DNA of 64,000 nt, taken from assembly GCA_000004695.1 (NCBI GenBank), contig CM000151.3, positions 5,728,001 through 5,792,000 of the forward strand, written 5' to 3'. Source of the DNA: Dictyostelium discoideum. Its lineage: Eukaryota. Below, one piece after another: positions 17,743 through 41,966 of the stretch. Numbering within the stretch: the first letter of the stretch is position 1; each line of letters begins with the position of its first letter. A program made the translations under genes and the position numbers. The notes beneath the pieces were generated by a model, which did no database searches, was not told where the DNA came from, and saw only the letters and a list, made by a program, of their open reading frames with translations.

Positions 17743-26201
<8,459 letters not shown>

Positions 26202-26873: not shown

Positions 26874-27949
26874 TTATTTATTTTGATATCTAATAAATTT
26901 TAATGATAAATAACCACCAACTAAAAGTGCAAAAGTGAATGAGGCCATAATTAAGATATCCCAATATTGGAAAGATATTTTATAATCAATTCTATCTAAT
27001 ACTTGAGTACCATGAGTGATCGGACAAAAGAATTTAGTAGTATTTTGAGATGGAATTGGTATTGGAATTGCACCTTTATTATCGGTACAAACGAATTCCA
27101 TATCTTTGAATTCAGTAATGAGGAAAGCTTTCAATGGATAAGAGATGAAATCCAAATAGAAAGCCCATTTCCAAGCGGCTGGCATCGATGGTGGGGGGAT
27201 CATAAAACCAGCGAAAAGAGATGTCACCGATAAGAGAACACCATTCAATAGGAAAGCCATTTCTTCAACTGGTAATGATGTTGCAAATGCAATAGATGTT
27301 AAACCGAAATTTAAATAAAGCATGACTGAAATGAATGAATGGTAAAAGAAATCCCAACCATGATTTGATAATGAAAGTCCAGTTAAAAAGTAAACTGGTA
27401 TGACGTAGGCGTAGGAAGTGATGATTACAAATGGTAGATCCGATAATACAAATGTTAGATAATAGATCCAAACTCTATACATCCCCGAAGCTTGTTCACG
27501 ATAGAATACACCACGTTCAGTTGAAACGGTTGGAATAATTGATAAACCTGCCATACCACCAAACATTAAACTAAAGAATAAAAATGAAATACGATTGAAA
27601 ACATCGTTTTGTTCTTTATCCAAACGTAAAAACAATGTACCAATAACCAAACCCAATACAAATGATCTACCAACACGAGTTCTAATTGTATCAACTCTAC
27701 GAATACCACCTTTCCATGACCTTTTCAATAACTCTATAAATTGAGTTTTAATTGTACTACTATATTTACCATGATAAACTGCCACTGGTGTACCAACTGG
27801 CATAATACTATTCTCAACAATTGATAATAGTTTTTGATTTTCTTTTGATTCTTTAAATGATTCAACTGGATCAAATGATATTGATGATGATGATAATGAT
27901 GATTCTAAATTTTTTTTATTATTATTATTTAAAGTATCACTTGTATTAC

Positions 27950-28034
<85 letters not shown>

Positions 28035-30577
28035 TTCATTAGAAGTTGAAGTTGGTAAGGTTTGTGGTGGTTGTATAATTTCAATAATATCTTCAGTTAC
28101 ATCCAAAATGAAATCTGCAGGATTTTTGAATGGATCACAAATTAAACCTCTTTCTGCAAAATAATTTAAAACAATTTTTGAATTTGTACCAGTTGGACCA
28201 AAGTAAACAGTTTCACCACCTCTCTTTAAGAGTAAAAGATGATCAAACTTTTTAAAGATTGTAGTTGATGGTTGATGAATTGTACAAATAACTGAACGAC
28301 CACTTGATGCAATCTTTTTAATTAAATTCATTACCTTCAAGGCAGCAGATGAATCCAAACCAGATGTTGGTTCATCAAGGAAGAGTAATTGTGGGTCCGA
28401 TGCTAATTCAATACCCATATTAACACGTTTACGTTGTGATAGTGATAAACCACTTTCAACATCACCAATTAATGAATGTTGAATCTTTAATAAATTTAAA
28501 GTCTCCAAAATATTATCAACAAATTCTTCCTTTTCTTGAATTGGTACTGAATTTGGTAATCTATTTTTAGCAGAGAATAAAATCACTTCTCTAACCGTTG
28601 ACACTGGTGTTAAAATATCCATTTGTTCAACATATGCGGAAGTACGAGTGAAATATTTAGTTCTTTCTTGACCATTGATTAAAATTTGACCTTTAGTATG
28701 ACCACCTGTTTTTCTATTAGCTAAAACATCTAATAATGTTGATTTACCAGCACCTGATGGACCCATTAATGCAACCAACATACCTGGTTTAACATAACCA
28801 TTAATACCATTCAATAGTCTTAAACGTTGATTTTTACCATCTTTCTTTACATCAACTTCATAAACTAAATCTTTCCATTGCATATAACAACCAATTGGAA
28901 TATCTTTCCTTAAATTTGCTTTACCACTTGATTTAACATCAACATCAACTGATTCCATTTCTTCACCAGAATCTGAATCATCATTTTGTTTTTTATTATG
29001 TTTATTATTAAAATAATTCATACTATTATTTGTTGTTGTACTATCGGTTGAATTTCTATTCATTTTTATTAGCGTTGTAGTTTTATTTGGTTTTGATTTT
29101 TTAATACCAACTGGATCTTTACGATAAACTCTAAATACTAAAAATTTCATACAAACCAAGGTAATTAACCAAAATAATAGAGTGAAAGCTGAAATAATTG
29201 CTAAATCAACCCATCTATAATAGAATTCAGTATGAAAACCAATTGAATCTAAAATTTGTTCACCTTTTGTAATTGGACAAACTTGATTACCTTCAAACCC
29301 TACCGGATAGGAGGTATTAAAAGTTGGTAAAAATGATGGTGGCATTAATTCATCGGGTGAGCAATGATAATCTAAACCACTATGTTCATTTAATAGTAAA
29401 CCTTCGAAACCATAATGAATTGGTGAAATCCAATAGAGCCAAATCCACCAACCTGGTATTTCATTGGAATGTTTCATATAGCCACACATTAGAATGAATG
29501 GTGATACAACAGCTGGTGAAATTGCAGATGCAGCATATTTGGTTTTAGTGAATGAACAAACACTTCTAATAATTGATAATGACATAACATCGCAAACTAA
29601 ACATGTTAAGAAAAAGTAAATAAATCTATCCCATGTCTTATTTAAACCTGTCATCCAATAAACGAAATTTGAAAATATCAATACCTCAACGATTGACATT
29701 GGTAAATCAGTGACAATCATACTTAGAAAGTAGGTGATTGTATTATAATATTTCCATGCACGTTCACTATAAAATACTTGACGTTGATCGAAAAATACAG
29801 ATATCGAACCAAATCCACCAAATACAAATGTTAACAATGAAAAGAATAATAAGCCTGACCTATTTGAACCATCGGCTTGGGTTGTATCCAATTTCCAATA
29901 CAATGTACCCAAAATAAACCCAATTATAACATTCTTTAATAGTCTAAGACGTATTGATGCTTTGTTACCAAGAAATAGTTTAAATCCTCTTTTAACATTC
30001 AATGATAATTGTCTACCAAATCCAGTTGAATATGGCTTTAATGTTGTTGAATAATCTATAAATTTACTTCTTTCTTCTTCATCTGGTATATGACTATCAA
30101 TATATTCTAAAATATGTTTATAAATTATTGATTTTCTATATGCCATTGCAAATTCATCTGATCCTTTTAAAGGTGGTATAATTTTATTATTATTATTCAT
30201 CATCATCATCGTTGATGAGGCTTTGTTTTTAAAATTATAATTATAATTACTACCACCACTACTACTACCACTATCACCACTACCACCATCACTACTACCA
30301 TCATCTATACCACAATATAATTCTGGTTCATCAACAATCTCTTGAAAAAATTCTGCTGGATTATGATGTTTTGGAAATTTAAATCCTAACCCTTCAAAAT
30401 ATCCAATTGCTTGATTCATTGGTCCAAAATATGACATTTGACCTTGATTCATAATCATTAAATAATCAAATAATTTTGTAATTTCTAATCCAGGTTGTAA
30501 TAATGATATTAAACATGACATTTTCTCTTGTTGAACTTTATTTTTAATTTTTGTTAACATCTTTTTAATAATTAATA

Positions 30578-30610
<33 letters not shown>

Positions 30611-31577
30611 AAAGTTAATTTAAAATTTTAGAGTTTAATATATATAAAACTCTAAAAAAAAAAGGAATAAAAAAAAAAATAAAAAAAAACTTACCTCTAA
30701 ACTTATTGAAGAATCTAAACCATTTGTTGGTTCATCCATTAATAATAAATTTGATTCCTTTACTAATTCAACACCAATGGTAACTCTTTTCTTTTGACCA
30801 CCAGAAATACCACGTAGAAATTCATCACCAACAACAGTATTTTGTACATGTTTCAAGTCTAAAAAATCCAATACATTATCAACAATTTCAATTCTTTCTT
30901 TTTCAGATTTATCCCCACTTTGACAATCGGCTGAAAATTTAAAAGTATCTCTTACGGTGAGTGGTGCTTTTAATAAAAATGAAAAAAAAATAAAAATAGA
31001 AAATTAGAAAATATTTCATTTTTTTTTTTTATTCAAAAATTTTGAAAAAAAAAAATTTTGAATTAAAAAAAAAAAAATTGGAAAAAATGAAATATGTGTA
31101 TTTACCCATATGAAAATCATCTTGTACAACATAACTAACATGTCTATGATGAGTATTGGGATCACCAGTTTTACCATTAAATAATAAATTTCCAGTTATT
31201 TTTTCATTTGAAGTTAATAATGCCAATGTGTTCATTAATGAAGTTTTACCACAACCTGGAGAACCTAATAATAAAACCATTGATCCAGGTTTTAAAAAAA
31301 AGTTTAAATCTGTTAAAATTTTCTTTTCATTTTTACCATGGCCAACTGTTGACGATAAATTTCTTGCTGATACAAATACAGATGTTCTTGGTAAATTTGA
31401 TGGATTATAACTACTTGTCGTTGAGAAATTCAATCCACCGTCAATAGATTGTTTTAAATTTGGTTCTGATTTCTTATCAACTCCAAATATATTTTTTGAT
31501 TCAATTGAATCATTTAAAAAATTCCTTGAATTACTTCTACTTTTTGCTAAATATTCTCTTTTTTCTTCATTTTCCAT
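26874..31577 (-). CDS. ABCG (PDR-type, NBD-TMD-NBD-TMD) full-size ABC transporter of about 1476 aa. Exons are 31106..31577, 30695..30966 and 26874..30560.
   Basis: Exon 1 has the Walker A motif GSPGCGKTS and ends ...[15 protein letters not shown]+G at a GTAAAT donor (31105). Exon 2 reads (A)[15 protein letters not shown]...VSGGQ-like [17 protein letters not shown]...[18 protein letters not shown] and ends at a GTAAGT donor (30694). Exon 3 starts at ...AAAAAG|ATG (30560) and reads [24 protein letters not shown].... The second NBD has GPSGAGKST ... LSLSQRKRV ... [12 protein letters not shown]. The hydrophobic TMD blocks follow. Phases were checked (472 nt gives +1, 272 nt gives 2+270). Confidence 0.8.
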
Positions 31578-31619
31578 TTTTTAAAATTATTTAAAAAAAA
31601 AAAAAAATAATGTTAAGAT

Positions 31620-31677
<58 letters not shown>

Positions 31678-31868
31678 AAAAAGGTTAATTTTTTTTTTTT
31701 TTTTTTTTAATATAAATTAAAGAACTAAGTTTTTTAATAAAATAAATAAATATAATTTTTTTTCTTAAAAATTATTTGAATATATATAGGTACAATTAAT
31801 TAAATTTAGTATTTCATAAATAAAATTTTAATTTTTATTATTTATTTTTTATTTAAAAATATTTTTAA

Positions 31869-31899
<31 letters not shown>

Positions 31900-32403
31900 A
31901 AAATTATTTGATTAGTAATAAATTAAAAAACATTCATACTCCTCTAAATATAAAAAAAATAATTTAATTATAATTTCAAATTTTATTTGTTGGATTTTAT
32001 TTTATTTGATTATTCTTGGTAGTAATCCCACACTAATTATAGATAAATATTCATGTTTCAAATACATTGTTTGATAATAACGAGTACAAGACAACATTAT
32101 TATCTCATTATTATTACCATAAAGATTAAAAACTTGAAAAACTAACACCATTGTTGGATTAAAATAGTAATTATCATTTAATAAAAATAAAAAAAAACAC
32201 CACAAATACATAATACCCCATACAAATATAAAAACAACCACACCTGGGATAATTACATACATACACACACACCCTACACCACTTTTAAAAATAATGACAA
32301 CACACAAACCACCAATAAATCCCTTCTTTTTTTATTTTTTTTATCTTTAAAAAAAACAAATATAAAATTTTAACAAATATAAAATTTTAAAAAATAAATA
32401 ACT

Positions 32404-32436
<33 letters not shown>

Positions 32437-32589
32437 TGATTATCAGATTTGAAACAAAATTATTTATAATGAGATAATATTAAACACACAATAAAAAAGA
32501 TTTTTTAATTTTTTTAATTTTTTATTTTATTATTTTTTTTTTTTTTAAAAAAATTTTTCGTACATATATATATATTTATAAATAATTGT

Positions 32590-35500
32590 TTATTTAGTTT
32601 GATGTCTAATAAATTTCAAAGCTATAAAAATACAAATGAAGAAAAAGACTGAATAACCAAAAATAACAGCCAAGAATTTATATTTATCTTCAGGTTTCAT
32701 TTCATAACGTTGTAAAATTTGATTACCATTTGTAATTGGACAAATTGGGCCAACATCAATATAAGTACCATTAACTGTAAGAACATTAGGTATAGTGACT
32801 GATTCACTACTTGTACAATGGAATTCTAAATCTTGGAATTCATTAATCATAACGATTGCCAATGGATAAGTAGTTGGATCCAATTGGTAGAACCAATGCC
32901 ATCCTTTAGCGATTGAAGCTGGTGGGATCATAAAACCAGCGAACAAAGAACTGATTGAAAGTGCTACACCACCCAAGGCATGAGCAATTTCATCGGTTGG
33001 AAGTACAGTTGCGAAAACCATTGCCAACATTGAGAAATTGAAATAAGTTGTGAATGAGATGAAGGAGTGGTAAAAGAATGGAGCACCATTTGGATCTAAT
33101 CTAAGACCAGAGATAAAGTACATTGGAACTGTATAAATAATAGCAGAGAGGAAAACCCATGGTAAATCGGTAACGATAAAAGTGAAGAGATAAATTGGAA
33201 TTGAATACATGCCAGATGCTTGCTCACGATAGAAAACACCACGTTCCATATTAACGATTGGAATTGAAGACATACCAGACATACCACCAAACATAAGACT
33301 GAAGAAAAGAATTGAGACACGATTATAAATATTCTCTTGAGTTTCTTCCATTCTAACGAAAAGTGTACCTAAAACTACACCCAAGAAAAGTGAACGCATT
33401 AAACGAGTACGAATATTTTGAACTCTACGTACTTGTGCTAACCAAGAACGTTTACCCAATTCAACGAATTGAGTTTGATAGGATGAGGAATAAACACCAT
33501 GGAATTCTGGTACTGGTGTACCAACTGGCATAACACCAGCATCAATTTTGGCCAAAAGATCACTATTCAATTGTGATTCTTTGTATTGTTGAACTGGATG
33601 GAATTGATGTGGTTTACCATCGAGTGTGGTTTCAATGACATCATCGGTTACATCTAAAATGAAATCGGCTGGATTCTTTAATGGATCACAAATTAAACCA
33701 TGATTTTCAAAATAACCAAGTAAATCAGCACTCTTATCACCAGTTGGACCAAAGTAAACAGTTTCACCACCTCTCTTTAAGAGTAAAAGATGATCAAATT
33801 GTTTGAAAATTGAAGTTGATGGTTGATGAATTGTACAAATAATTGAACGACCACTTGATGCAATCTTTTTAATTAAATTCATTACCTTCAAGGCAGCAGA
33901 TGAATCTAAACCAGAGGTTGGTTCATCAAGGAAGAGCAATTGTGGATCTGATGCTAATTCAACACCAATGTTAACACGTTTACGTTGTGATAATGAAAGA
34001 CCTTCTTCACCATGACCAATTTGTTTATTTTGAATCTTTAATAAATTTAAAGTTTCAATAATGTTTTCAACAAATTTAATTTTCTCTTCATTTGGCATAT
34101 CACTTGGTAATCTAGTTTTAGCAGAGAATAAAATTGCTTCTTTAACAGTTTGAGTTGGTGGAAGAACATCAAATTGTTCAACGTATGCAGAGAGACGAGT
34201 AAAATATTTAGTTCTTTCTTGACCATTGATTAAAATTTGACCTTTAGTATGACCACCTGTTTTTCTATTAGCTAAAACATCTAATAATGTTGATTTACCA
34301 GCACCTGATGGACCCATTAAAGCAAGTAACATACCCGGTTTAACATAACCATTAATTTCATTCAATAATCTTAAACGTTGATTTTTACCATCTTTCTTTA
34401 CATCAACTTCATAAACCAAATCTTTCCATTGCATATAACAACCAATTGGAATTTCTTTTTGAGCTTTTACCATACGATTTTCTTTGATATCAACTTTGGA
34501 ATCCTTGATTTTCTTTGATCTCTTTGAGGCTTTTTTAGAACGTTTATCATTCTTTGGATCAGATGCTCTATGATCGACATGAACATTCTTGAGGAAGAAG
34601 TACATACCAAAAGAGAAAAGTGCACCAAATGCAAAAACAATTAACAAATCGATCCATTTGAACCAATTATTTTGTGGCATACCTAATTGATCAAGGAATT
34701 GATCACCTCTAGTAATTTGACAAATTGAAGAATTTCCAGAACCTCTTGGATATGGTAATTCAAAGTTTGGAGTATTACGTGGTGGGATTGTTTCACTATC
34801 ATCACAGCTATAAATTAAACCATGATGTTCATTTGACATGAGACCTTCAAAAGCATATTTAATTGGTGAGATCCAATAAATCCAAATCCACCAACCACCA
34901 ATACTTCTTTTTGGTGCCATAAAACCAGAGAACAAAATGAATGGAGCCAATGCAGCTGGTGCAATAACTGAAGCCAAGGTTGCATTTGGAGCAAAAGCTG
35001 AAACCATTTTAAAGAAAGATTGGAAAGCCAAATCACCAACGAAATTCATTAATAAAAAGTAAATGAATTTCTCTGCATTCGCTTGTAGACCACACATCCA
35101 ATAAACCAAAACACAAAATACCACAGTCTCTAAGAGTGCAATTGGAATTTCAGAAAAGATTAATGATAAAAAGAATGCAAATGTCTTGTAGTATTTACCA
35201 TCTTTTTGTATGTAAAACACCTCTCTTTGTTCGAAAAGAATTGCAATGGCACCCATACCCGAGAAAACAATAAACAACAATGAAAAGAAAATCAAACCCG
35301 ATCTATTATTACCATCGGTCTGATTCAAATCTAAACCATAAAAGAGTGAACCCAAAATTAAACCCATTACAATCGATTTTATAATTCTCATTCTAACGGC
35401 AACTTGACTTGAAATTAACATTTTAAATGCTCTAATACTTGCTAAACGAATTTGATAGGATAAAGGTGTTGGATATTTTGGAAGATGTGAACTATCTTTA

Positions 35501-35944
35501 CAAAATGTTAAATCTGGTTGAGTGTTATCTAAATCATTTACAATACTTTGGAACATTGCGCTATTCTTGTATGCATTTGCAAATTCTTCGGCACCTCTAA
35601 GTGGTGGTTCACCTTCACCTTCAAAATATAATTCTGGTTCATCAACAATCTCTTGGAAAAATTCTGCTGGATTATGATGTTTTGGTAATTTAAATCCTAA
35701 TCCTTCAAAATATGAAATTGCATCTGACATTGGTCCAAAATAAACCATATGACCAGCATTCATAATCATTAAGAAATCAAATAATTTTGTAACTTCAACA
35801 CCTGGTTGTAATAATGCTACCAAACTTGAAACTTGATTTACATTTGATAATTCTCTAAAATGTTTCATTAACTTTTTTTTTAATAAAAAAAAAAAAATAA
35901 AAATAAAATAAAAAAATATTAATACTAAATTTTAAAAACTATTA

Positions 35945-35975
<31 letters not shown>

Positions 35976-36773
35976 ACTTCTAAAGTAGTAGTTGAATCTA
36001 AACCAGTTGATGGTTCATCCATTAAAAATAAACCAGCATCTTTAACCATTTCAACACCAATTGTAACTCTTTTCTTTTGACCACCCGATACACCTCTTAA
36101 AAATTCATTACCAACAACTGTATCTTGTTGTCTAGTAAGATCCAAAGTCTTTAAAATATAATCAACTCTTGCGTTCTTTTCTTCTTCAGATGTACCTTCA
36201 CTCATTTGAAGATCGGCTGAAAATTTAAATGTTTCTCTAACTGTGAATGGAGCTATTATAATAAAAAAAAAATAAAAAAAAAATTAGAATTTTTAATTTA
36301 TTTTTATTATTATTATTATTATTATAATTATTATTTTACTTACCCATATGATGATCACCTTGTACAACATATGCAACATCTCTATGATGAGTACTTTTAT
36401 TAGCAGCTTTACCATTAAATAATAAACTACCAGATACAGTTTCAGAATGTAATTGATTGGCCAATGCTTTCATAACTGAGGTTTTACCACAACCTGGAGA
36501 ACCCAAAATTAAAACCATTGAACCTGGTTTAAGGAAAAAATTTAAATCTGATAAAATATTTCTTTTATCACCTTTCTTTTCAGTACCAATAGACATACTT
36601 AAATTTCTAGCGGTGACATACATTCCTTTCTTTTCTTTATATAAACCCATTGGAGCACCCGAATTATCATATGAAATACTTTGCATTCCGCCAATTGTAT
36701 TATCAGCTGCAAATGATTTTTGTCCAAATTCTTGTAATGGGATTTCATCATTACCAATTTCTGGTGGAGCCAT
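32590..36773 (-). CDS. Second ABCG (PDR-type) full-size transporter of about 1329 aa, a tandem paralog of the upstream gene. Exons are 36344..36773, 35978..36252 and 32590..35871.
   Basis: Exon 1 is [16 protein letters not shown]...GSPGCGKTS...[15 protein letters not shown]+G, with a GTAAGT donor (36343). Exon 2 is (A)[15 protein letters not shown]...[17 protein letters not shown]...[18 protein letters not shown], with a GTAAGT donor (35977). Exon 3 starts at the ...AAAAAG|TTA ATG acceptor (35871) and reads [24 protein letters not shown].... The exon structure and phases match the upstream paralog exactly. Confidence 0.8.
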
Positions 36774-39350: not shown

Positions 39351-40015
39351 TTATTGTTTAAAGTAAATATTATTTAAAAAAGCTTTATTTTCTTCTTTTT
39401 CTAAAGAAGATTTTGCGTAATCTATATCATCATTAATTGCTTTAACCAATTCTTCTAAAGATTTAAAATCGCACATTGGTCTAATGAAACCTAAACCAAT
39501 TGCACGTAATTCAGCACCATAAAAATCACGTTCAAATTTATTTATTAAATGAATTTCTATTGTCTTCTTTGTATTTTTATAAAATGGGTTCCAACCAATG
39601 CTCATTGCCATTGGAAAAACTTTATTTCCTTCTAATCCTATAACATTAGCCCATCCATAATAAACACCAATCGGTATATCTTTTAATTCTTCTTCTAATT
39701 CTTCAACTGGTAAATTTGCTATTATAATTATAATTATAATTATAATTATAATTATAATTATTATTATTTTTTATTTTTTTTTAATATTAAATATAAAATT
39801 AATTTTATTTTAGTTAATAATTATAATTATAATTATTTTTATTTTTATTATTATAAATATTATTTTTTATTTTTATTTTTTAAAGTACACATACCAGTCG
39901 GTATACCAAGTTGTTTACTTCCTCTCCCAAACCCTGTAATGACAGAACCTTTAAAAAATAATGGTAATTTATCTAAAACTTGACCAGAGTTTCCTCTTTC
40001 TATTTCTGCTGTCAT
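39351..40015 (-). CDS. rfk: Riboflavin kinase (flavokinase) of about 163 aa. Exons are 39895..40015 and 39351..39718.
   Basis: Exon 1 is MTAEIERGNSGQVLDKLPLFFKGSVITGFGRGSKQLGIPT+G, with a GTATGT donor (39894). The intron of about 176 nt is full of (ATTATA)n and ends ...TATAATAG. Exon 2 is (A)NLPVEELEEELKDIPIGVYYGWANVIGLEGNKVFPMAMSIGWNPFYKNTKKTIEIHLINKFERDFYGAELRAIGLGFIRPM.... The canonical RFK motifs GRGSKxLGxPTAN and MSIGWNPFY are present. Confidence 0.85.
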
Positions 40016-40613: not shown

Positions 40614-40916
40614 ATGGCTGATGATAAAAAGAAACAATTAGAAGAATCAAAAAGATTAGTAGAATTATTTAAAGCAAGTTCATTAGCATCAAAAAAACCA
40701 AAGGGACATGAATTTTGGGATACTCAACCAGTTCCAAAGATTGACGATAAAATTATTGAATCTGGTCCAATTGAAAATAAAACTTTAGATGATGTTAGAA
40801 AAGATCCATTAACTTTACCACCAGCTTTTGAATGGATTGAATTAGATTGTAATAAACCAGAAGAAGTAAGTTTTTTTTTAATTTTAATTTTATTTTTTAT
40901 ATAAACATATTTTAAT

Positions 40917-40975
<59 letters not shown>

Positions 40976-41966
40976 GTTAAAAGAAATTTATACATTACTT
41001 TATGAAAATTATGTTGAAGATGATGATAATATGTTTAGATTTGATTATTCACCAGAGTTTTTAAAGTGGGCATTACAACCACCAGGATTTTTAAAGGAAT
41101 GGCATATTGGTGTTAGAGTTGTTGAATCAAAGAAATTGGTAGGATTTATTTCAGGTATTCCAGCAACTATTAGGGTAGAGGGTAAACCAATTACAATGGT
41201 AGAGATCAACTTTTTATGTGTTCACAAAAAGTTAAGAGAGAAACGTTTAGCACCAGTACTTATCAAAGAGGTGACAAGAAGAGTTAATCTTAGAAACATT
41301 TGGCAAGCCGCCTATACAGCTGGTGTAGTGTTACCAAAACCAGTTGCAATTTGTAAATATTGGCATAGATCAATTAAGCAACAGAAACTCGTTGAGGTTG
41401 GGTTCAGTGCGATACCACCAAAGATGACTATGGCATCCATGGTGAAATTGTATCGTATCAATGATGAAATGAAACATCCATTACGTCCATTGACCAAAGA
41501 GGACGTACCATCATTCAAGGTGTTATTGGACGACTACTTGTCGAAATATAAAATCGCACCAGAGTTCACCACTGATGAAGACGTTTGGCATTGGTTTGAG
41601 ACTAGAAAGGACGTTATCACTTGCTATGTAAAGGTTGACGAGTCCACTAAAAAAGTCACTGATGCTTTCTCATTCTACAATTTACCATCAACCATCATTG
41701 GTAATGCAAAACATAATACCCTCAAAGCAGCATTCTCCTTCTATAATGTAGCCACAACTATGTCAATCACTGATTTGGTTGGTGACGCACTTGTCACTGC
41801 AAAGAAAATGGATTATGATGTCTTCAATTGTTTAGATGTTTTCGAAAATTCAACTTTCTTTAAAGATTTGAAATTTGCGGTTGGTGATGGTGATCTTCAA
41901 TATTATTTATACAATTATTCAACTCCAACTAAAAAATCATCTGAAATTGGTTTAGTTTTGTTATAA
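40614..41966 (+). CDS. nmt: Glycylpeptide N-tetradecanoyltransferase (N-myristoyltransferase) of about 414 aa. Exons are 40614..40865 and 40977..41966.
   Basis: Exon 1 is MADDKKKQLEE...GHEFWDTQPVPK...LPPAFEWIELDCNKPEE, with a GTAAGT donor (40866). The intron is a poly-T of about 110 nt ending AAAATAG. Exon 2 is LKEIYTLLYENYVEDDDNMFRFDYSPEFLKWALQPPGF...EINFLCVHKKLREKRLAPVLIKEVTRRVN...LQYYLYNYSTP...GLVLL. This is near-collinear with the metazoan and fungal NMT core. Confidence 0.9.

Follow-up and report, generated by a model that had tools for sequence, protein, structure and literature searches.

Recurrent gene conversion very probably homogenises the catalytic core of the second nucleotide-binding domain in the tandem abcG2 transporter pair of Dictyostelium

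Interlocus gene conversion between tandem duplicates is a textbook process. The closest described system is the ABC11-ABC1 pair of Candida krusei (Pichia kudriavzevii), tandem PDR genes whose 98% DNA identity is ascribed to recurrent ectopic conversion and in which ectopic recombination also yields one-gene chimeras and three-gene arrays, as outlined in PMC6053246 (citing Lamping et al. 2017, Genetics 205:1619). Mammals have gene pairs that evolve in concert over long times through ongoing gene conversion (PMC2720389), and PMC3749932 and bioRxiv 10.1101/2025.10.29.685298 attribute the mosaic of homogenised and diverged segments in the tandem HMA4 transporter paralogues of Arabidopsis halleri to interlocus conversion. 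Within Dictyostelium, the kin-recognition paralogues tgrB1 and tgrB2 are intermingled within clades, which has been read as interlocus gene conversion or recombination, and ABC transporters as a family show no elevated diversity (bioRxiv 10.1101/2025.10.22.684067). Bird ABCG2 and ABCG2-like genes have been tested for conversion and none was found, and no case among the abcG genes of Dictyostelium came up in our literature search. Here we analyse two full-size ABCG genes lying head-to-tail on the minus strand at positions 26874-36773 of a 64-kb window of Dictyostelium discoideum DNA (assembly GCA_000004695.1, contig CM000151.3, 5,728,001 to 5,792,000; G+C 22%). The upstream gene (B) is abcG2 and the downstream gene (A) is its neighbour.

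Both genes encode full-size ABCG/PDR-type pumps with the order nucleotide-binding domain (NBD), transmembrane domain (TMD), NBD, TMD (reverse topology). NBD1 precedes TMD1 in the A/B protein alignment, and each protein has two stretches matching PF00005 ABC_tran (E = 9e-52, 2e-51) and two matching PF01061 ABC2_membrane (E = 2e-98, 2e-99). The spliced translation of B is identical, residue for residue, to AbcG2 of D. discoideum AX4 (P0121, 'ABC transporter G family member 2', UniProt Q9NGP5, UniRef100_Q9NGP5), and overall protein identity between A and B is 56%. Comparison of this pair with its counterparts in eight further genomes leads us to conclude that recurrent, short-tract, non-reciprocal interlocus (ectopic) gene conversion has very probably operated between abcG2 and its downstream neighbour, ancient tandem copies 5.55 kb apart head-to-tail.

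The codon alignment of A and B, which has an offset of +5551 nt in the NBD2 zone, shows two near-identical blocks on either side of a middle block (Table 1). Nucleotide identity is 94.4% at A 28190-28440 (5.6 mismatches per 100 nt; third positions 88%) and 95.4% at A 28640-28900 (third positions 92%), compared with 74.9% between the blocks (28441-28639), 58.0% in TMD1 and 62.5% in TMD2. With blastn the whole of NBD2 aligns at 87% over 834 nt, and other regions at 65-72%. The edges of the high-identity zone are abrupt (A 28905|28906 and A 28186|28185). Exact A/B runs of 119, 63, 60, 48 and 35 nt fall within the blocks, the 119-nt run (A 28769-28651) in block 1 and the 63- and 60-nt runs in block 2, while elsewhere no run exceeds 31 nt. 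The signature motif of A straddles a boundary, its first 8 nt lying in the middle block and the remainder in block 2. Between the introns and flanks of A and B, blastn found only low-complexity A/T matches and no sign of conversion beyond the coding sequence. As placed on these motifs, the zone that appears converted in D. discoideum is the RecA-like catalytic core of NBD2, with the helical subdomain spared.

These comparisons bear out much of an initial annotation of the window. The three exons and splice phases that it reported as common to A and B are indeed shared, the GT..AG introns lying at homologous positions with the first in phase 1 and the second in phase 0, and its two NBD2 blocks are near-identical at silent sites as well, although its B coordinates were about 4 nt off. 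Its description of NBD1 and the TMDs as similar only at the protein level holds for the TMDs but not for the NBD1 tail, where A 30171-30470 has 83% nucleotide identity to B and a synonymous divergence (dS) of 0.17-0.27.

Silent divergence is far from uniform along the alignment. In sliding windows of 40 codons, Nei-Gojobori (NG86) dS is 0.11-0.26 in the blocks and 0.36-0.51 in the middle, and it ranges from 0.7 to above 2 (saturation) in the TMDs, where dS between A and B is 1.0-1.8. Tract detection agrees with this picture. A Sawyer/GENECONV-type permutation test in our own implementation (5000 permutations, A/B pair) gave p = 0.0002 with all polymorphic sites and p = 0.002-0.015 with silent sites only.

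Such a profile could in principle arise with no exchange at all, if strong purifying selection on NBD2 and AT-biased codon usage together made silent sites alike. The blocks are 86-93% identical in amino acids, about 60% of codons at conserved residues are expected to match from codon usage alone, and low dS is also seen in the NBD1 tail, another very conserved stretch. As Dictyostelium codon usage here is extreme, we compared the share of identical codons at conserved degenerate residues in A and B with a usage-based expectation. In the TMDs 204 of 315 such codons are identical (range 0.61-0.68) where codon usage predicts 0.60, that is, saturation. Block 1 reaches 80/89 (0.90) and block 2 75/85 (0.88), against usage expectations of 0.60-0.64 (z = 5.6 and 5.9, respectively), and both exceed the TMDs by Fisher's test (p = 1.5e-6 and 1.6e-5). 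Silent identity in the blocks, 0.88-0.91 across our comparisons, is therefore well above what selection on the protein and codon bias would give.

A protein search yielded orthologues of A and of B across Dictyostelia, and the genomic loci were then fetched. They comprise two further D. discoideum strains (L007, L008), D. cf. discoideum (L001), D. citrinum (L009), D. dimigraforme (L003), D. firmibasis (L002), D. purpureum (L004, L006) and T. lacteum (L005), which together with the window represent nine genomes; all but T. lacteum form the eight group-4 genomes. Of the rebuilt coding sequences, those of the A-type genes and of D. purpureum and T. lacteum translated exactly into database proteins; the B-type genes in three loci were verified by the length and homology of their products. 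From L007-L009 only the in-frame part of exon 3 was taken, beginning at the LLQPG motif and ending with the stop codon. Protein-guided codon alignments were made of 12 and then of 18 sequences.

All nine genomes have exactly two genes with diverged flanks. The B-then-A tandem is kept in L001-L003, L005 and L007-L009, the exception being D. purpureum (L004 1-14206, L006; scaffold GL871203), in which B is inverted with respect to A and separated from it by an 863-aa WD40 gene; tblastx found no homologue of this WD40 gene in the window. Both T. lacteum genes have two exons, not three. Neighbour-joining trees split all A from all B with bootstrap support of 100% (TMD1) and 96% (TMD2), with the two T. 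lacteum genes placed accordingly. Since the TMD trees part all A from all B, the duplication predates the divergence of T. lacteum and group 4, and the A/B pair is ancient.

Given a duplication older than these species, A-B dS without exchange is expected to be at least as large as orthologue dS. In the 12-sequence alignment, within-species A-B dS in block 1 is only 0.14-0.28 in the five group-4 species. Orthologue dS in this block is 0.62-0.64 from D. discoideum to D. purpureum, and it is 1.1-2.0 to T. lacteum; to D. dimigraforme and D. firmibasis it is 0.25-0.35, with A-B dS smaller or similar. The trees tell the same story. An 88-codon tree of the block 2 core is essentially a species tree, with 0% support for the all-A versus all-B split and with A and B of one species joined in D. 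firmibasis (74%), D. dimigraforme (60%), D. purpureum (97%) and T. lacteum (100%). In the block 1 tree, A and B join in D. purpureum (96%) and T. lacteum (100%). Hence A and B of D. purpureum still cluster in NBD2, at 96-97%, despite their inversion and separation.

Site patterns give the clearest contrast between blocks and TMDs. Quartets that combine A and B of D. discoideum with those of D. purpureum favour orthology at 17 and concerted evolution at 53 block sites, a balance reversed in the TMDs (269 and 39, respectively; p = 6e-25). Replacing D. purpureum by D. firmibasis or D. dimigraforme gives the same direction (p = 2e-14 and 5e-13, respectively). Across the eight group-4 genomes, A and B show a concordant taxon pattern at 51 of 153 variable block sites versus 25 of 1111 TMD sites (p = 3e-32). 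Block 1 contributes 22/76 and block 2 29/77 of these sites, 10 of the latter having non-singleton patterns. Third positions that vary by species yet are alike in A and B include A 28383, 28377, 28350, 28344, 28341, 28338, 28335, 28209 and 28206 in block 2 and A 28755, 28731, 28719, 28707, 28671 and 28665 in block 1.

Synonymous identity at shared residues can be compared directly. In the eight-genome comparison A and B of D. discoideum have the same codon at 78/86 residues in block 1 and 72/82 in block 2, and within-species values are 0.88-0.94 in D. discoideum, D. firmibasis and D. purpureum; in T. lacteum they are 0.76 for block 1 and 0.92 for the block 2 core. Orthologues with the same residues reach only 0.65-0.72 (D. 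purpureum) and 0.49-0.64 (T. lacteum), below A versus B within a species. A third full-size ABCG paralogue of D. purpureum, P0016 (L010 6001-10259, scaffold GL870981), is unlinked to the pair, encodes 1292 aa in six exons and is nearly identical to A and B in block 2 core protein; no D. discoideum counterpart was among the top matches. Its synonymous-codon identity is 46/80 (0.57) to A and 45/82 (0.55) to B, whereas D. purpureum A and B share 70/79 (0.89; p = 1e-5 versus P0016). Because this paralogue carries the same residues and yet reaches only 0.55-0.57, protein constraint and codon bias cannot yield a silent identity of about 0.9. Nor can purifying selection make species-specific silent variants common to A and B, and we regard an origin without exchange as extremely unlikely. 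We also considered P0016 as a third participant in conversion, since 'SSSALKVMN' is common to it and to D. purpureum A and B; this was rejected, its silent sites being saturated against both.

Variants private to single lineages are also common to both copies. D. citrinum has private variants common to both copies at 28716, 28884, 28197, 28332, 28388, 28392 and 28404, and D. cf. discoideum has its own in both copies at 28308 and 28437. As each lineage carries its own private variants common to A and B, the events are independent per lineage. At site 28338 the two paralogues agree within each genome, with G in the window strain and D. cf. discoideum and A in the other two D. discoideum strains; this polymorphism, present alike in both copies within D. 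discoideum, implies that the process continues on a population timescale. In the small sample of four genomes formed by the three D. discoideum strains and D. cf. discoideum, there are 5 shared polymorphic sites in the 255 nt of block 2 versus 0 in the 1265 nt of TMD1. Conversion thus appears to be recurrent and ongoing, and independent in every lineage examined. The initial annotation had favoured recent conversion over purifying selection and had proposed a comparison of orthologous pairs. The codon-usage excess, the P0016 control, A-B dS below orthologue dS and the shared species-specific variants uphold conversion, and the blocks indeed pair A with B within species where the TMDs follow orthology. 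'Recent' fits a process still operating within D. discoideum but is too narrow for one that recurs in every lineage.

Several observations weigh against this interpretation. No conversion event has been caught directly, and tract lengths and direction are mostly not fixed by the data. Bootstrap support for A+B is modest (56-74%) among the closest species, which we attribute to the small number of informative sites. In a polarised test of A/B differences fixed in D. citrinum, D. dimigraforme and D. firmibasis, the D. discoideum complex had lost 2/46 in the NBD2 zone, against 12/283 and 11/199 in the TMDs, so that erasure in the NBD2 zone is no higher. A general direction of conversion could not be drawn from this test and was rejected, erasure being at or below the TMD level of about 4-5.5% and only small patches standing out. 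It follows that the remaining A/B differences are stable and that only new silent variants reveal recent events; that block differences are not erased faster than background points to short tracts, selection against convertants, or both. G+C content at third codon positions (GC3) is not elevated in the blocks (0.11-0.19) over the TMDs of these genes (0.17-0.24), and GC-biased gene conversion was rejected on this ground. Finally, in D. discoideum alone, synonymous identity of the middle block (0.82) is not significantly below that of the blocks (0.89; p = 0.28). The contrast seen by eye in a single genome is therefore largely non-synonymous: the middle block is more diverged overall, as first described, but not demonstrably so at its silent sites.

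This last point, together with a middle-block A-B dS in D. discoideum of 0.40 that lies below the TMD value of about 1.1, would be expected if chimeric genes had arisen just once and recently in D. discoideum, through an event such as unequal crossing-over, a domain swap or one long conversion, and if the middle had then diverged fast under relaxed or positive selection, with no need for a recurrent or patchy process. The other genomes make this very unlikely. The block pattern is present in all nine, and silent variants common to A and B but private to one lineage occur in each of D. citrinum, D. dimigraforme, D. firmibasis, D. purpureum and T. lacteum; the constant two genes with diverged flanks also speak against it. 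Furthermore, the middle block holds many A/B differences that are constant throughout D. discoideum, D. cf. discoideum, D. dimigraforme and D. firmibasis, and in the D. discoideum clade its A-specific and B-specific states are fixed in seven genomes. Because A- and B-type states are common to the orthologues of D. discoideum, D. dimigraforme and D. firmibasis, and because the middle-block tree is of the orthology type, with group-4 A genes monophyletic at 96% bootstrap, these states are older than those splits. Only 4/100 variable middle-block sites are concordant in the eight group-4 genomes. It is these multi-species data, and not the single genome, that show the middle block as truly escaping conversion in the D. 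discoideum clade, and on them the patchiness claimed at the outset stands.

An error of assembly or consensus, in which reads of the similar NBD2 regions were collapsed or cross-polished, is conceivable as identical stretches of up to 119 nt approach the length of short reads. We give it practically no weight, since the same structure recurs in nine independent assemblies from several projects, the window B protein equals the curated AX4 AbcG2, and paralogue-specific fixed differences are interspersed within the blocks. Six block codons carry A/B differences fixed in 7 genomes, and five of them are non-synonymous (G/E, T/L, M/I, T/S and K/Q).

A plausible mechanism for recurrent conversion can be outlined. 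A break or nick in the NBD2 of one copy would be repaired from the other copy without crossover, leaving gene number and flanks unchanged. Initiation would require uninterrupted runs of identity (119, 63, 60, 48 nt), which are found only in the constrained RecA-like core, and each conversion would restore identity and so make the process self-sustaining there. The TMDs, linkers and helical subdomain may be too diverged to participate, and selection for paralogue-specific contacts with a copy's own TMD may also shield the diverged parts. We infer synthesis-dependent strand annealing (SDSA)-type repair, feedback through an identity threshold and selection against convertants as the elements of this model.

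Small patches offer a closer view of individual exchanges. A candidate A-to-B patch lies in the B middle block (Table 1), where D. discoideum B has the A-type LNLLKIQ in place of the LNLAKIQ of D. cf. discoideum B and the LNLVKIQ of D. dimigraforme and D. firmibasis B. At A 28696 a change of HI to HT matches B and is a candidate for B-to-A transfer. These small patches suggest exchange in both directions.

The NBD1 tail appears to be a second, weaker zone. A-B dS in this tail is low in D. discoideum (0.27) and D. cf. discoideum (0.21) but reaches 0.65 in D. dimigraforme, 0.80 in D. firmibasis and 1.06 in D. purpureum, and a cluster of three derived sites agrees with the other paralogue. Concordant sites here number only 6 among 78 variable ones. 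That low dS is confined to two genomes argues, with moderate strength, for lineage-specific exchange over constraint. In T. lacteum, A groups with B throughout NBD2, even in the helical subdomain (100%), and also in the NBD1 tail (92%) and, with weak support, in the NBD1 core (66%). The zone is therefore wider there than in D. discoideum, and its boundaries vary by lineage.

Separate from these zones, TMD1 of the D. discoideum complex has two pairs of adjacent changes, at 29167-29168/34610-34611 and 29272-29273/34715-34716, each of which shifts one paralogue to the state of the other. Among the 562 variable sites of TMD1, 15 changed in parallel in A and B of the same taxon. Both observations could reflect either micro-conversion tracts or coincident mutations.

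Table 1. Positions in the window of the two genes, the blocks and patches compared between them, and the neighbouring genes
Feature	Gene	Position	Strand	Remarks
Gene B (abcG2)	B	36773-32590	minus	exons 36773-36344, 36252-35978, 35871-32590; 1328 aa
Gene A	A	31577-26874	minus	exons 31577-31106, 30966-30695, 30560-26874; 1476 aa
Block 1 (putatively converted)	A	28636-28905	minus	start of NBD2 through Walker A (28763-28737), ends just short of Q-loop
Block 1 (putatively converted)	B	34187-34456	minus	Walker A 34314-34288; from codon alignment
Middle block	A	28441-28635	minus	NBD2 alpha-helical subdomain, Q-loop (28634-28623) to just ahead of signature motif
Middle block	B	33992-34186	minus	partner of A 28441-28635
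Block 2 (putatively converted)	A	28186-28440	minus	most of signature motif to 'FGPTG'
Block 2 (putatively converted)	B	33737-33991	minus	from codon alignment
Signature motif ('LSLSQRKR')	A	28448-28425	minus	
Walker B	A	28388-28365	minus	
D-loop	A	28364-28353	minus	
H-loop ('CTIHQPS')	A	28286-28266	minus	
Candidate A-to-B patch in middle block	B	34040-34044	minus	A partner 28489-28493; within 24-nt exact run A 28502-28479
NBD1 tail	A	30171-30500	minus	B partner ~35602-35811; weaker, lineage-dependent zone of low silent divergence
Candidate 6-nt A-to-B patch in NBD1 tail	A, B	A 30455-30450 = B 35766-35761	minus	LMVLN to LMIMN in B, D. discoideum complex
NMT gene, beyond B		~40614-41753		synteny with fetched loci
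Flavokinase gene, beyond B		~39351-40015		follows NMT gene; synteny with fetched loci
Large (~2400-aa) gene, beyond A		aligned part to ~25130	minus	long open reading frame 17743-24816; synteny

The linker between NBD2 and TMD2 of gene A contains a poly-asparagine run of about 30 N, encoded by an (AAT)n-like repeat (window 27941-28044, minus strand), an insertion missing from B. Among strains of the D. discoideum complex the gene A protein is 1476, 1459, 1454 or 1456 aa long. Neither its exon-3 open reading frame nor its full spliced protein had an exact counterpart in the protein collection searched. Gene A is probably abcG18/mdrA2. If so, the two neighbours are already tied genetically through suppression of rtoA-, as the double abcG18-/abcG2- mutant suppresses this mutation (PMC3743828).

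PDR pumps are asymmetric, with one degenerate and one catalytic ATP site. In our pair, the H-loop histidine is missing from NBD1 ('LLQPG', 30500-30490) and present in NBD2 ('CTIHQPS'), and the NBD2 signature is degenerate, LSLSQ in place of the SGGQ of NBD1. The putatively converted core has canonical Walker A, Walker B and H-loop motifs. By analogy, this suggests a PDR-like asymmetric arrangement in A and B, with one degenerate and one catalytic ATP site. It is tempting to propose that the homogenisation is more than a passive outcome of sequence identity and is kept by selection, conversion being a device of error correction or co-adaptation that holds one 'engine' common to two pumps with distinct substrate-handling TMDs and, in the helical subdomain, a distinct NBD-TMD interface. 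We consider this rather doubtful. If true, the converted core would, on the same analogy, hold the only catalytically competent ATP site, and the shared engine would have persisted through the radiation of the Dictyostelia and the inversion of the D. purpureum locus.

The middle block may be of functional interest in its own right. Its first helix has R/K-E at Q+11/+12, matching R137/E138 of human ABCG2, where we presume the numbering Q126 for the placement. In human ABCG2 these residues contact the elbow helix and have been mutated together with elbow-helix K386 (PMC5653816). A common catalytic core combined with different helical subdomains and TMDs amounts to a natural experiment on domain boundaries, and the five conversion-resistant non-synonymous differences and the segment from Q-loop to signature are predicted to be paralogue-specific and functionally important.

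There are practical consequences as well. NBD2 gives abcG2 and its neighbour a false, recent-looking relationship, so ABCG trees and duplication dates based on NBDs would be wrong here and TMDs are preferable. Partial sequence sharing also matters for the design of knock-outs and RNA interference and for read mapping.

Collectively, our data add a clean multi-genome case of domain-restricted concerted evolution that has lasted since before the split of T. lacteum and group 4, although the phenomenon itself is well known. The C. krusei ABC11-ABC1 pair is alike in consisting of full-size ABCG/PDR efflux pumps in head-to-tail tandem with recurrent conversion. Unlike that system, conversion in Dictyostelium is limited to about 525 nt of the NBD2 core, the TMDs being 58-62% identical and silent-saturated, and the pair is ancient, with exactly two genes in nine genomes. 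A whole-gene homogenised array of the C. krusei type was accordingly rejected for our locus, on this TMD identity, a TMD dS of 1.0-1.8 and the constant gene number. The mammalian pairs resemble ours in that paralogues within a species are closer than orthologues, in stretches and over very long times, though organisms and families differ. With tgrB1/tgrB2 our pair shares the genus and the inference of interlocus conversion; there, however, conversion is discussed as a source of diversity under diversifying selection, whereas the ABCG pair has a homogenised, conserved catalytic domain. HMA4 is similar in its mosaic of homogenised and diverged segments in tandem transporter paralogues, but its copies are recent and under positive selection for dosage, whereas the ABCG pair is ancient and functionally differentiated. 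The abcG2 pair is thus a new instance of a known process, distinctive for its restriction to the catalytic core, for the age of the pair and for recurrence in every lineage sampled, including D. purpureum with its inverted and separated copies.

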